Virus record (IMG/VR): IMGVR_UViG_2636415673_000001
Coordinates: 1-42,350 of that record
Strand: one strand, 5' to 3'
Origin: a virus
Taxonomy: Duplodnaviria > Heunggongvirae > Uroviricota > Caudoviricetes
DNA: 42,350 nt
Shown here: piece by piece, positions 33,053 through 40,932 of the stretch
Numbering within the stretch: the first letter of the stretch is position 1
Layout of the letters: each line of letters opens with the position of its first letter
Notes under the pieces: generated by a model
Told to the model about the DNA's origin: nothing
The model's input: only the letters and a program-made list of their open reading frames with translations
The model's database searches: none
Translations under genes and position numbers: made by a program

Positions 33053-33379
33053 ATGGATGCACAAACACGCCGCCGCGAACGTCGCGCAGAGAAACAGGCT
33101 CAATGGAAAGCAGCAAATCCCCTGTTGGTTGGGGTAAGCGCAAAACCAGTTAACCGCCCTATTCTCTCGCTGAATCGAAAACCGAAATCACGAGTAGAAA
33201 GCGCACTGAATCCGATAGACCTTACGGTGCTGGCTGAATACCACGAACAGATTGAAAGCAACCTGCAGCGTATTGAGCGCAAAAATCAGCGCACATGGTA
33301 CAGCAAGCCACGCAGTGAAATAGGTGTGACTTGTGTTGGTCGCCAGAAAATGAAATTAGGCAGCAAACCACTTATTTGA
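33053..33379 (+). CDS. N: Antiterminator N
   Basis: 108 aa matching lambda N (MDAQTRRRERRAEKQAQWKAANPLLVGVSAKPVNRP...); AGGAG RBS. Confidence 0.95.
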   Translation: MDAQTRRRERRAEKQAQWKAANPLLVGVSAKPVNRPILSLNRKPKSRVESALNPIDLTVLAEYHEQIESNLQRIERKNQRTWYSKPRSEIGVTCVGRQKMKLGSKPLI

Positions 33380-34223: not shown

Positions 34224-34384
34224 AAAAACCAACTTACGAGGAACGGGAAGAAGCCCTGAAAGAGCTTAGAAGAATGGCTTTCGCCAGACGCACTAACTCT
34301 CACAACTGCGGCCCATTTCAGTACTCTGATTTATGCGAGGACATCATTGAGGTAACTCAACTGATTAAGGTCGTTAAGCAATGA
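34220..34384 (+). CDS. Small hypothetical early protein
   Basis: 54 aa; ATGA-coupled to upstream ORF. Confidence 0.4.
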   Translation: MKKPTYEEREEALKELRRMAFARRTNSHNCGPFQYSDLCEDIIEVTQLIKVVKQ

Positions 34385-34539
34385 GCATTGCGGATACATG
34401 GTCAGACGAAGAATTCATTCGTCAGATGAAAGATTTAATCGGTAACGAAGGAGATATTCATGTCACTTGCAACCACAGTGAAGGAGAGCAAGTTACAGAG
34501 ACGCATGTACACACAGAAAGCTCTCTGGTATCGCCATAA
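34381..34539 (+). CDS. Small hypothetical early protein
   Basis: 52 aa; ATGA-coupled. Confidence 0.35.
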   Translation: MSIADTWSDEEFIRQMKDLIGNEGDIHVTCNHSEGEQVTETHVHTESSLVSP

Positions 34540-34640
34540 TGGCGACCGCGAAGGAATGCGGGTATGCCTTAATTTGTCCCGAGTCGAAGTATTAAATCAG
34601 CGTTATTTCCTTGGGCCATGTCCATTCTGAGAACAATCAT

Positions 34641-35246
34641 ATGAGCAAAGAATTTTACGCAAGACTGGCAGCTATTCAGGAGAATCTGAACGCGCCAAAG
34701 AATCAGTACAACTCATTCGGTAAATATAAATACAGAAGCTGCGAAGACATTCTTGAAGGCGTTAAGCCGTTACTGAATGGCCTGTTTTTATCAATCAGCG
34801 ATGAAGTTGTGTTGATTGGTGATCGGTATTATGTGAAAGCCACGGCAACTATTACCGATGGCGAAAACAGTCATACGGCAACCGCTCTTGCACGAGAGGA
34901 AGAAAGCAAGAAAGGAATGGATTCTGCACAAGTTACGGGAGCCACAAGCTCTTATGCACGCAAGTATTGCCTCAATGGTTTGTTCGGCATTGATGATGCG
35001 AAAGATGCAGATACCGACGAGCATAAACATCAGCAGAACGCAGCAGCAAAGCAATCAAAACCATCACCTACACCTGAACAGGTTCTAAAAGCATTCACTG
35101 ACGCAGCATTGCAGAAAAACACCGTGGAAGAGCTTAAACAGGCGTTCGCCAAAGCGTGGAAGATGCTCGAAGGCACACCGGAGCAGCACAAAGCGCAGGA
35201 CGTTTACAACATCAGACGAGACGAATTAGAAGGAGCTGCTGCTTAA
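34641..35246 (+). CDS. erf: Erf single-strand annealing recombinase
   Basis: N-terminus MSKEFYARLAAIQENLNAPKNQYNSFGKYKYRSCEDILEGVKP matches P22 Erf. Confidence 0.9.
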   Translation: MSKEFYARLAAIQENLNAPKNQYNSFGKYKYRSCEDILEGVKPLLNGLFLSISDEVVLIGDRYYVKATATITDGENSHTATALAREEESKKGMDSAQVTGATSSYARKYCLNGLFGIDDAKDADTDEHKHQQNAAAKQSKPSPTPEQVLKAFTDAALQKNTVEELKQAFAKAWKMLEGTPEQHKAQDVYNIRRDELEGAAA

Positions 35247-35629
35247 TGGCACATTCGATTACTGTAAGACTAAACAAGCCCGCAAGAGAGTTTCAGGCCG
35301 GGGAAAATATCGGATTCAACATCCGTGCTGGCGTTCAGTATTACGATCGCCAGACAAAAAAGAAAGAATGGACAAACTACAGCGCCGTTGTATTTGCCAA
35401 GCCGGGAGCGCAAGCGGATTACTACCGTAGTGTTCTTGTTGAAGGTGGCATTGTAGAAATTACCGGAGAAAACATCAGGGTTGATGTTTATCAGGGGCAA
35501 AATGGTCAATCAATCACTCTTGAATTACTGAATGCAAAGATTGGATTTGCAACTTCAGGAAACAGCCAACAGCAGCAAAGTAGCAATCATCAAAATCATC
35601 CTGAATACGACGATTCAATTCCCTTCTAA
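35246..35629 (+). CDS. SSB-like protein with canonical acidic C-terminal tip (DDSIPF)
   Basis: 127 aa; stop-start overlap with erf (TAATG); AGGAG RBS; C-terminal ...PEYDDSIPF resembles the E. coli SSB tail DDDIPF. Confidence 0.6.
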   Translation: MAHSITVRLNKPAREFQAGENIGFNIRAGVQYYDRQTKKKEWTNYSAVVFAKPGAQADYYRSVLVEGGIVEITGENIRVDVYQGQNGQSITLELLNAKIGFATSGNSQQQQSSNHQNHPEYDDSIPF

Positions 35630-35652
35630 AGTAGCAACATAAGGATTCCATT

Positions 35653-35949
35653 ATGCCAGCGCCTCTGTATGGTGCGGATGACCCACGCCGCTGTTCCGGC
35701 AATTCCGTATCGGAAGTGCTGGATAAATTCAGAAAAAACTACGATCGAATAATGTCTCTACCGCAGGAATCGAAAGAGGAAAAGGAATTTCGCCACTGTA
35801 TATGGCTTGCAGAGAAAGAAGAACGAGAGCGAATTTACCAGACATCAATCCGACCATTCCGCAAAGCCACATATACCCACTTCCCTGAATATATCGACCC
35901 GCGCCTGCGTAATTACCGCTCACGCTATGGCGCTATCAGTAATGACTGA
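35653..35949 (+). CDS. Hypothetical early protein (size and position compatible with a P22 Abc-type anti-RecBCD protein; not verified)
   Basis: 98-aa ORF with RBS. Confidence 0.5.
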
Positions 35950-35959
35950 GGAATTTACC

Positions 35960-36124
35960 ATGAGAGGACTTGCATACAATCCCGGCATTCTTCCGGCAGA
36001 AATGATTATTCGCCAACGCGTAAAGCCAATGCCATCGAGAGAGGAATTGCTTAAGAGAAATTCTTTTCCTTCAGTGAATCAAAACAAATATCTGAATGCG
36101 ATGTGGCGGAGTGGGAAGAAATGA
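35960..36124 (+). CDS. Small hypothetical protein
   Basis: 54 aa; GAGGA RBS. Confidence 0.4.
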
Positions 36125-36627
36125 AACAAATGTCACTAATTGAGATGGATGGATTTCTGAAAGGTAAATGCATCCCACGAGATTTAAAGGTTAACGAAAC
36201 AAACGCTGAATATCTGGTGCGTAAATTTGCTGAAGCGGAGGCCAAGATTTCGGCTCTGTCCGAAGACCACCAGAAAGCGATTGAGTCAATTAAGCAGGCT
36301 GATGCAGCTGTTAAATTGGCACACGAGAAGTTTTCAGCGCTTGCGGCGGAGAATGCGGGGCTGAATAAATTTATCGCACAGAGTTGCTACGTGTTTGATG
36401 GCGAGCAGGATGAGCTATCTGATGCGTATATCTGCGCAATAGACGGAAAGATGCCGCAAACCCCAGCCACCGATGCTTTCCTGGCTGAAATTGAACGCAA
36501 AGCAATCCGCAAGTTCATTAACAGCATTGAATACATCCTGCGTGACAAGTTGTCACCGTATGACACCGAAGAGATGCTTGAAGCTATGCGTATTTTTCTG
36601 GAAGAACAGGGAGGTGAGCAAAAATGA
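36121..36627 (+). CDS. Hypothetical early protein
   Basis: 168 aa from ATG overlapping upstream stop (ATGA). Confidence 0.55.
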
Positions 36628-39665: not shown

Positions 39666-39884
39666 ATGTACTTAACACTTCAGGAGTGGAACGCACGCCA
39701 GCGGCGCCCAAGAAGCCTTGAAACAGTTCGTCGATGGGTGCGCGAATGCAGGATATTCCCTCCTCCGGTTAAGGATGGAAGAGAGTATCTGTTCCACGAA
39801 TCAGCGGTAAAGGTTGACTTAAATCGACCAGTAACAGGTAGCCTTTTGAAGAGGATCAGAAATGGGAAGAAGGCGAAGTCATGA
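39666..39884 (+). CDS. xis: Excisionase Xis
   Basis: 72 aa matching lambda Xis. Confidence 0.95.
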   Translation: MYLTLQEWNARQRRPRSLETVRRWVRECRIFPPPVKDGREYLFHESAVKVDLNRPVTGSLLKRIRNGKKAKS

Positions 39885-40932
39885 GCGCCGGGATTTACCC
39901 CCTAACCTTTATATAAGAAACAATGGATATTACTGCTACAGGGACCCAAGGACGGGTAAAGAGTTCGGATTAGGCAGAGACAGGAGGATAGCAATCACTG
40001 AAGCTATACAGGCCAACATTGAGTTATTTTCAGGACACAAACACAAGCCTCTGACAGCGAGAATCAACAGTGATAATTCTGTTACGTTACATTCATGGCT
40101 TGATCGCTACGAAAAAATCCTCGCCAGCAGAGGAATCAAGCAGAAGACACTCATAAATTACATGAGCAAAATTAAAGCAATAAGGAGGGGTCTGCCTGAT
40201 GCTCCACTTGAAGACATCACCACAAAAGAAATTGCGGCAATGCTCAATGGATACATAGACGAGGGCAAGGCGGCGTCAGCCAAGTTAATCAGATCAACAC
40301 TGAGCGATGCATTCCGAGAGGCAATAGCTGAAGGCCATATAACAACAAACCCGGTCGCTGCCACTCGCGCAGCAAAATCAGAGGTAAGGAGATCAAGACT
40401 TACGGCTGACGAATACCTGAAAATTTATCAAGCAGCAGAATCATCACCATGTTGGCTTAGACTTGCAATGGAACTGGCTGTTGTTACCGGGCAGCGAGTT
40501 GGTGATTTATGCGAAATGAAGTGGTCTGATATCGTAGATGGATATCTTTATGTCGAGCAAAGCAAAACAGGCGTAAAAATTGCCATCCCAACAGCATTGC
40601 ATGTTGATGCTCTCGGAATATCAATGAAGGAAACACTTGATAAATGCAAAGAGATTCTTGGCGGAGAAACCATAATTGCATCTACTCGTCGCGAACCGCT
40701 TTCATCCGGCACAGTATCAAGGTATTTTATGCGCGCACGAAAAGCATCAGGTCTTTCCTTCGAAGGGGATCCGCCTACCTTTCACGAGTTGCGCAGTTTG
40801 TCTGCAAGACTCTATGAGAAGCAGATAAGCGATAAGTTTGCTCAACATCTTCTCGGGCATAAGTCGGACACCATGGCATCACAGTATCGTGATGACAGAG
40901 GCAGGGAGTGGGACAAAATTGAAATCAAATAA
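39862..40932 (+). CDS. int: Integrase Int (tyrosine recombinase)
   Basis: 356 aa matching lambda Int; overlaps xis 3' end. Confidence 0.95.
   Translation: MGRRRSHERRDLPPNLYIRNNGYYCYRDPRTGKEFGLGRDRRIAITEAIQANIELFSGHKHKPLTARINSDNSVTLHSWLDRYEKILASRGIKQKTLINYMSKIKAIRRGLPDAPLEDITTKEIAAMLNGYIDEGKAASAKLIRSTLSDAFREAIAEGHITTNPVAATRAAKSEVRRSRLTADEYLKIYQAAESSPCWLRLAMELAVVTGQRVGDLCEMKWSDIVDGYLYVEQSKTGVKIAIPTALHVDALGISMKETLDKCKEILGGETIIASTRREPLSSGTVSRYFMRARKASGLSFEGDPPTFHELRSLSARLYEKQISDKFAQHLLGHKSDTMASQYRDDRGREWDKIEIK

Follow-up and report, generated by a model that had tools for sequence, protein, structure and literature searches.

The window analysed here is a stretch of 42,350 nucleotides of viral DNA (Caudoviricetes; IMG/VR record IMGVR_UViG_2636415673_000001) in which a short gene of the SSB-1b type lies between the recombination genes erf and abc2. 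The features of the locus are listed below by position in the window.

34641..35246, + strand: erf, encoding a 201-aa single-strand annealing protein (Pfam ERF, 2.1e-44)
35073..35243, + strand: Erf C-terminal three-helix module, codons 145-201, a putative SSB-tip interaction domain (from tblastn, alignment and AF2 helices)
35229..35248, + strand: candidate translational coupling junction, GAAGGAG plus TAATG (from sequence reading)
35246..35629, + strand: SSB-1b-type gene, homologue of HK022 gene 40, HK97 gene 40 and HK446 gp31, 127 aa, stop codon included (from the ORF list)
35246..35557, + strand: predicted OB-fold domain, codons 1-104, beta strands plus a helix at residues 55-63 (from AF2 pLDDT, fold matches and hhalign)
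35558..35602, + strand: disordered Q/N/S-rich linker, codons 105-119 (pLDDT below 50 at residues 107-121)
35603..35626, + strand: C-terminal tip EYDDSIPF, codons 120-127, a predicted SSB-Ct-like docking motif (from sequence and family conservation)
35653..35949, + strand: abc2, anti-RecBCD gene (Pfam Anti-RecBCD_p2, 2e-61), the downstream member of the recombination module

By direct reading of positions 34400-36200 together with the ORF list, the SSB-1b-type ORF starts with ATG at 35246-35248 and ends with TAA at 35627-35629. The erf stop codon TAA is located at 35244-35246 and its final A serves as the first base of the following ATG, giving the one-base overlap TAATG, while a Shine-Dalgarno-like GAAGGAG lies at 35229-35235, within the 3' end of erf and 10 nt ahead of the ATG. 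The 127-aa product ends in ...NHQNHPEYDDSIPF (an ending also given as ...SGNSQQQQSSNHQNHPEYDDSIPF), with PEYDDSIPF as its final residues. The original prediction, which was made from the sequence alone, had already given these coordinates, the length of 127 aa, the TAATG overlap and the PEYDDSIPF tail, and all of them agree with the sequence and the ORF list. It had also described the gene as tightly coupled to erf, and this holds well beyond the window: among 80 related IMG/VR loci carrying the Erf type of the window, the gene directly follows erf in every one (80/80), the one-base overlap is kept in 79/80, abc2 comes next in 80/80, and intact copies are present in 76/80, the loci having been retrieved with an Erf protein query and being near-identical ones that serve linkage counts but not covariation. 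The same one-base overlap is found at erf/abc1 of P22 and at a pair of Sak4-like and SSB genes in a Leminorella prophage. A local promoter scan found no promoter-like site near the SSB-1b gene, and the terminator-like sites around it numbered three against 2.7 expected in shuffled sequence, with none standing out. Because there is no local promoter and terminators are at the level of shuffled sequence, we consider the gene to be read from the operon transcript, and its translation is probably coupled to that of erf.

The gene order in the window is kil-like gene, 52-aa ORF, erf, SSB-1b gene, abc2 and DUF2737. The order erf, SSB-1b gene, abc2 also occurs in HK022 and HK446, and HK97 gene 40 was confirmed to lie between erf and abc2, while the order in P22 is arf, erf, abc1, abc2 and orf56. 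A 56-aa ORF upstream of erf (34460-34630) was considered as an analogue of P22 Arf, and no similarity was found between them. The Erf of the window is 75% identical to P22 Erf overall, with 92% identity in residues 1-135 and 31% in residues 153-201, and its C-terminal domain is 40% identical to that of an SSB-1b-linked Vibrio Erf. At the DNA level, similarity to P22 covers 34641-35101 (79%) and 35650-36102 (84.5%) with nothing between, so that the gap from 35101 to 35650 marks a replaced block made up of the last ~48 erf codons and the SSB-1b gene. Distant SSB-1b relatives (30-50% identity) are encoded directly after Erf in Edwardsiella GF-2, Vibrio 14E30.1 and E. coli KW1E, and in the Leminorella prophage the relative comes directly after a Sak4-type AAA_24 annealase, with a one-base overlap. 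SSB-1b genes are thus associated with single-strand annealing proteins generally, and most often with Erf.

The SSB-1b gene is conserved among lambdoid phages. At the DNA level it shares 99.7% identity with HK022 gene 40 and 97.9-99.7% with 24 other lambdoid phage records, the best of 50 matching records, and 579 of 5426 complete E. coli genomes (~10%) carry the gene, which PGAP mostly labels there as a hypothetical protein. The protein is 94.5% identical to HK97 gp40 over 127 aa by tblastn and 99% identical to HK446 gp31 (HK446_031). The family comprises 320 clusters at 90% identity and, in a set of 1.84 billion proteins, only 219 representatives at 50% identity; because it is so small and compact, its profile fails to reach the huge canonical SSB family. 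Among fifty distinct closely related alleles, the eight most divergent gave pN/pS values of 0.1-0.3 in the SSB-1b frame, and the single most divergent one carried 6 synonymous and 1 nonsynonymous changes in its OB part against 6 synonymous and 5 nonsynonymous changes in its linker, indicating that the linker is relaxed. Disrupted copies were found in 4/80 IMG/VR loci, HF4s has a split copy, the match in mEp234 is restricted to the first 48 residues, and in the HK97 reference sequence a 1-nt insertion in gene 40 destroys the tip, so that the end reads ...DDSNPILI, whereas the tip of the window copy is intact; essentially only the tip distinguishes the HK97 reference protein from that of the window. 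Given these disrupted, split, partial and frameshifted copies, the gene appears to be dispensable in some phages, and P22 uses nearly the same Erf N-terminal domain without any phage SSB. Such dispensability might suggest that the ORF is a decaying gene, but the selection signal in its frame speaks otherwise and makes this account unlikely; the SSB-1b gene is a real gene under selection.

Curated models do not recognize the 127-aa protein. Pfam gave no match at E<=1, TIGR00621 'ssb' scored 16.4 bits (E 0.0084), below its cutoff of 53.95, and sequence and profile searches of the PDB returned only marginal SSB matches (E 0.04-0.3). PHROG 44, named 'single strand DNA binding protein', matched residues 2-127 with 101 bits (E 1.8e-28), and the distant family members of Edwardsiella GF-2 and E. 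coli KW1E weakly match PF00436 (E 0.003-0.008). An AlphaFold2 model of the monomer was built from 46 diverse homologues and had a mean pLDDT of 83.9, with values above 90 across most of residues 10-100. The model has the OB topology: its beta strands form a barrel, and a single helix (residues 55-63) follows strand 3 and precedes strand 4. A Foldseek search of the PDB with this model gave 47 matches at E<=1e-3, every one of them an SSB (bacterial, some mitochondrial) or PriB, and a fold search of BFVD matched phage SSBs. When the family profile was aligned with E. coli SSB by hhalign (probability 82.5%, E 9.7e-6), Y32, W42, F50 and Y82 were paired with W40, W54, F60 and W88 of E. coli SSB in an alignment of moderate confidence. 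These four residues of E. coli SSB stack on ssDNA. In the alignment of 46 sequences, position 32 is Tyr in 45/46 (one His), position 42 is Trp in 45/46 (one Tyr), position 50 is Phe in all 46, and position 82 is Tyr in 38 and Phe in 8. On the basis of the predicted structure and the moderate-confidence profile alignment, we place the protein in the SSB/PriB OB lineage, from whose other members it has diverged strongly. The original prediction of an SSB-like protein, which the lack of an OB fold would have refuted, is supported at the level of the structure model.

The rest of the protein also resembles an SSB. The linker is Q/N/P/S-rich across the family and ranges from 16 to 80 residues with a median of 21, which is also its length here when counted from the last OB strand; the short family forms, of 123-134 aa, are the enterobacterial prophage ones. 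At the C terminus, DDSIPF shares 5/6 positions with DDDIPF, the end of E. coli SSB, retaining the terminal Phe, Pro, Ile and two Asp residues. Among proteins of 115 aa or longer, an x-P-[FWY] ending is present in 82/109 from the 90%-cluster set and in 65/120 distant representatives, and in a further 1 member of the close set and 9 distant representatives one to three extra residues trail behind the motif. About two to three acidic residues precede x-P-[FWY] in the family, the tip pattern being [FYW]-D-D-x-I/P-P-F, with variants such as QFDDSIPF, EYDDSIPF, WDDxPPF and DFDDDIPF, and the Leminorella prophage member (P0094) carries the exact host-type tail MDFDDDIPF. The host-SSB-type acidic tip first noticed in the window is accordingly kept across the SSB-1b family. 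Because the tip is conserved and the linker hypervariable, the tip is considered to be under selection and the linker free to vary, as in canonical SSBs.

Compared with canonical SSBs (E. coli SSB and others covered by PF00436 and TIGR00621, and the phage 'SSB-1' proteins of Sf6 and ES18), the window protein has the same predicted OB fold, with its helix linking strands 3 and 4, an aromatic residue at each of the four stacking positions, a disordered linker and an acidic IPF tip. However, the identity in the OB domain is only ~15-19%, below all curated model thresholds, and the window protein is more compact, with a linker of ~15-21 residues and a total of 127 aa against ~55 residues and 178 aa in E. 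coli SSB. PriB has an SSB-like OB fold without linker or acidic tip; since the window protein has both a linker and a conserved IPF tip, it is not of the PriB type. The closest known counterparts are HK97 gp40, HK022 gene 40 and HK446/HK75 gp31, which share with the window gene the family, the nuclease-free module type and the fold-based assignment as a diverged SSB. In a survey of 325 lambdoid phages, HK97 gp40 was named 'SSB-1b' from its AlphaFold 3 fold, and a module type consisting of anti-RecBCD, SSB and annealase (SAP) was defined with HK75 as its prototype (PMC12315714, Genome Res 2025).

We next consider the annealase. In a single-sequence AF2 model, the Erf of the window consists of an N-terminal annealing domain, a disordered linker (approximately residues 122-141) and a three-helix C-terminal domain (residues 145-200), whose helices span residues 145-158, 162-176 and 180-200 with pLDDT values of 83-92. 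In tblastn searches, the last 51 residues of Erf matched the C terminus of an AAA_24 (Sak4-type) protein of Erwinia EhrS_59 (51% identity, E 4e-9) and the C termini of RecT-family proteins of Enterobacter Tyrion and Klebsiella BUCT711 (49% identity), the annealase core types having been assigned by Pfam. The motif of this module, P-[DE]E-x-L-x-x-F ... W-x-x-L ... EQ-x-KAK-[DE]-V-Y-x-[IL]-R-x-x-EL, is also present in the Leminorella Sak4-like protein, in Vibrio Erfs, in the Erf of mEp013 and, more distantly, in P22 Erf. The shared C-terminal matches imply that one small helical module is attached to three annealase cores, namely Erf, Sak4/AAA_24 and RecT. Downstream of a module-bearing annealase lies an SSB-1b gene in the window, Vibrio 14E30.1 and Leminorella, a canonical PF00436 SSB gene in Vibrio BT-1011, and no phage SSB gene in EhrS_59, Tyrion, BUCT711, mEp013 and P22, and the Erfs of GF-2 and KW1E lack the module, yet SSB-1b relatives come next. 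Because the module occurs without a phage SSB and because these two module-free Erfs precede SSB-1b, we downgraded the idea of a strictly co-adapted cassette of Erf C-terminal domain and SSB-1b to a hypothesis, the pairing of the two not being exclusive.

Taking fold, tip and gene neighbourhood together, we consider it likely that the 127-aa protein, with its predicted SSB/PriB-like OB domain (~104 aa), linker (~15 aa) and host-like tip EYDDSIPF, acts within an Erf-SSB-Abc2 module by coating ssDNA and recruiting Erf through its tip. The protein would be expressed from the early-left (PL) operon with its translation coupled to that of Erf. Where Abc2-modified RecBCD or replication yields ssDNA, the protein would cover the strand and leave the tip exposed; the exposed tip would recruit the three-helix C-terminal domain of Erf, and Erf would then displace the SSB and anneal the complementary strands. 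We infer this mechanism from the precedents of HK620 SSB/Sak4, 80alpha SSB/Sak and Redbeta/host SSB. Because its tip is host-like, the SSB-1b protein can probably dock host SSB-interacting proteins too, and conversely Erf probably reads host SSB as well.

The precedents are experimental. The HK620 protein HkaK, formerly labelled 'abc1', is an SSB; its final six residues (NDYPPF) are required both for the binding of Sak4 to SSB-coated DNA and for the stimulation of Sak4 annealing and recombineering (PMC5928155). In 80alpha, the C-terminal domain of Sak and the last 7 residues of the phage SSB are both required to anneal SSB-coated DNA (PMC11846896), and Redbeta uses its C-terminal domain to contact the final ~9 residues of host SSB, an interaction needed in vivo (PMC11611040). 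The specificity of annealases for their hosts is considered to depend on SSB tails (PMC12054835). HkaK ('SSB-2') resembles the window protein in occupying the same slot between annealase and abc2, in the same early mislabelling as abc1 and in having a host-like tip, here NDYPPF, needed for stimulation of the annealase. Unlike the window protein, its partner is Sak4 rather than Erf, and it is reported to be a non-homologue of bacterial SSB (PMC12315714). In the 80alpha Sak/SSB and lambda Redbeta/host SSB systems, the annealase combines a flexible linker with a small helical C-terminal domain and recognizes the final 7-9 SSB residues (PMC11846896, PMC11611040); the model of the window Erf has a matching layout, although the annealase families and hosts differ and the tip interaction demonstrated in those systems is proposed here by analogy. 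Of the two roles suggested in the original prediction, the other being competition for host SSB partners, service in Erf-mediated recombination is backed directly by experiments on comparable phage SSB/annealase pairs (PMC5928155, PMC11846896), and it is the most likely role of the protein.

The host-like tip also allows a different reading, in which the protein is a decoy or hijacker for host takeover: the tip would titrate ExoI, RecJ, RecQ, RecO, PriA and the Pol III chi subunit, or redirect them on phage ssDNA, shielding phage ends or bringing in host replication-restart factors, and any help to Erf would be secondary. The SSB-Ct features read by host partners are the terminal Phe, Pro-1, Ile-2 and the preceding Asp residues. 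All of them are kept in the tip of the window protein, and some relatives, such as P0094, carry the exact host tail MDFDDDIPF. The neighbouring Abc2 is another hijacker of a host enzyme, and the presence of the Erf C-terminal module in phages without their own SSB indicates that a phage SSB is not strictly needed by Erf. We nevertheless regard this reading as rather unlikely as the main role of the protein, because the gene is consistently found directly after an annealase gene and translationally coupled to it across distant lineages, many relatives have tips that are not host-like (e.g. WDDxPPF), and phage SSB tails have been shown to act on the annealase of the phage itself (PMC5928155, PMC11846896). 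Such a role is plausibly compatible with the recruitment of Erf, the two not being mutually exclusive.

Position in the genome was the basis of another assignment. The GenBank record of HK022 annotates gene 40 as 'likely analog of P22 Abc1' because it occupies the position of P22 abc1, which would make the protein an accessory factor that modifies RecBCD together with Abc2 rather than an SSB. The window gene does lie exactly where P22 has abc1, after erf and before abc2, and it overlaps erf by one base and is coupled to it in the same way. The DNA homology to P22, which ends at 35101 within erf and returns at 35650, indicates that the two genes are allelic replacements. However, P22 Abc1 (94 aa) is unrelated in sequence (hhalign probability 0.2%) and lacks an SSB-like tip, and the predicted fold of the 127-aa protein is an SSB-type OB fold. 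The same positional argument applied to HK620 hkaK, experimentally an SSB (PMC5928155). We therefore rejected identity with an Abc1 analogue, as there is no sequence or profile similarity, the fold is of the SSB type and only the genomic position is shared, and a corresponding function is very improbable. It is also quite unlikely, if somewhat less so, that the protein is a general replication SSB for O/P-type replication of the phage genome, placed among the recombination genes by mosaic history alone. SSBs of the bacterial type act in both replication and recombination, and the host-like tip would permit contacts with the host replisome. Against this, the gene sits in the PL recombination module and travels with annealases of different families (see also PMC12315714), and 177 of 246 Enterobacteriales-infecting lambdoid phages with recognizable Rec-module genes have no SSB gene (PMC12315714). 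Replication is possible as a second role of the SSB-1b protein, beside the ssDNA coating and Erf recruitment that we prefer.

As SSB-1b has been named (PMC12315714), and as PHROG 44 and several phage records call its relatives SSB, the finding was already known as a prediction, and the window gene is an ordinary member of a described family. Our search of the literature found no experiments on the SSB-1b protein, and as late as July 2026 the gene was given as 'uncharacterized' in a preprint (10.64898/2026.07.10.737580). The phrase 'C-terminal tail' does not occur in the main text of PMC12315714, and four points seem not to have been stated explicitly so far, namely the family-wide host-like tip, the match of the aromatic residues to those of E. 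coli SSB, the broken tip of the HK97 prototype and the C-terminal module shared among annealases. If the proposed mechanism holds, the window would provide another case of a general rule, by which phage annealases act by way of the few residues at the end of an SSB; certain phages would bring their own SSB to guarantee the contact with the annealase. A firm annotation as SSB would aid the reading of prophage recombination modules and of screens for triggers of defence systems; one such system, Retron-Eco8, senses phage SSBs (PMC13402713). The compact 127-aa SSB and its cognate Erf could be a useful recombineering pair, as cognate annealase/SSB pairs improve portability (PMC12054835), though the practical value is modest.

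The distribution of the Erf module suggests, as a hypothesis, that the module recognizes ...DDxIPF tips of host and phage origin alike, and argues against strict co-adaptation with SSB-1b. A more specific proposal, which we put forward tentatively and hold to be possible rather than probable, is that the ~55-aa module is a portable reader of SSB tips shuffled among Erf, Sak4/AAA_24 and RecT, with SSB-1b as a phage-borne copy of its ligand (DDxIPF), the two forming a self-contained docking pair. Such a pair, if real, would make the recombination module less dependent on host SSB, and the mosaic breakpoints relative to P22, inside the Erf C-terminal domain and just before abc2, would fit its movement as a unit. 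The module shared by Erf, Sak4 and RecT proteins also offers a specific candidate case of the 'partner-interaction domain shuffling' left unanalysed in PMC12315714.

The right half of the window (20001-42350) was found to be a mosaic lambdoid (pro)phage, which carries a lambda-type N gene and a lambda/HK022-type integrase together with a non-lambda repressor and an Erf-SSB-Abc2 recombination module. The best single phage match, vB_EcoP-720R6, covered only 59%, at 97.3% identity.

Features of the right half of the window
33053-33379, lambda-type N gene
34381-34539, + strand, 52-aa ORF just before erf, two genes upstream of the SSB gene
34460-34630, + strand, 56-aa ORF matching PHROG 1723, labelled 'recombinase'
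35073-35243, + strand, three-helix C-terminal module of Erf (codons 145-201)
39862-40932, lambda/HK022-type integrase

Comparison with P22 revealed sharp mosaic breakpoints at 35101/35102 and 35649/35650. While homology of 79-85% extended over erf codons 1-154 and over abc2 and orf56, no similarity to P22 was detectable between the two breakpoints. The swapped block comprises the C-terminal approximately 48 codons of Erf and the SSB gene, in place of which P22 has its own Erf C-terminus and abc1.

The three-helix module of Erf was also carried as a C-terminal domain by Sak4-type (AAA_24) and RecT-type annealases from phages or prophages of Erwinia, Leminorella, Enterobacter, and Klebsiella. 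Where scored (EhrS_59, Tyrion, and BUCT711), the identity of the module was 49-51%, and the Erf-module motif was present in the alignment of the Leminorella prophage protein. The module seems to be a mobile domain for partner interaction, common to three unrelated annealase cores.

Recurrences of the module at annealase C-termini (positions within each compared locus)
L091, 1801-1947
L092, 1801-1941
L095, 1801-1941
L088, 2138-3001

Two SSB genes of other phages are listed below.

SSB genes of other phages
L096, 787-1176 (AF069529.1 23786-24175), - strand, HK97 SSB-1b gene (gene 40), the published SSB-1b prototype
L094, 1936-2484, canonical PF00436 SSB of Vibrio phage BT-1011, downstream of an Erf with the same C-terminal module

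The HK97 reference copy has a 1-nt insertion near its 3' end and therefore the protein ends in ...VYDDSNPILI, not ...DDSIPF; this insertion is either a real mutation of the laboratory strain or a sequencing error. In the same record, the product name 'Gp40' is attached to both gene 40 and erf. In phage HF4s (L002, 3001-3396), the SSB-1b gene lies in two ORFs, an 'ssb protein' of 94 aa and a 36-aa ORF, and mEp234 (JQ182732.1 23243-23386) matched only the first 48 residues of the window's SSB-1b protein, at 100% identity, indicating a gene that would be truncated or hybrid. Evidently, the SSB-1b gene has been lost or remodelled in some phages. The BT-1011 SSB contains PPMSFDDDIPF followed by 16 additional residues (APIGLQYGRNLLHVI...), because of which its tip would be internal; the extension could come from read-through or a frameshift, or be a problem of the annotation.

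The 52-aa and 56-aa ORFs immediately upstream of erf overlap in different frames and each matched its own PHROG, the former PHROG 2123, likewise labelled 'recombinase'. HK022 and HK97 have a similar overlapping pair, annotated 42 and 42.1. We considered the 56-aa ORF as a relative of P22 Arf, and the two proved unrelated on comparison. The 52-aa ORF shared 79% identity with HK446_033 ('Gp33'). According to a 2026 preprint (10.64898/2026.07.10.737580), HK75 Gp33 by itself sets off toxicity of P2 OLD, an abortive-infection protein, and may represent a novel manipulator of RecBCD.
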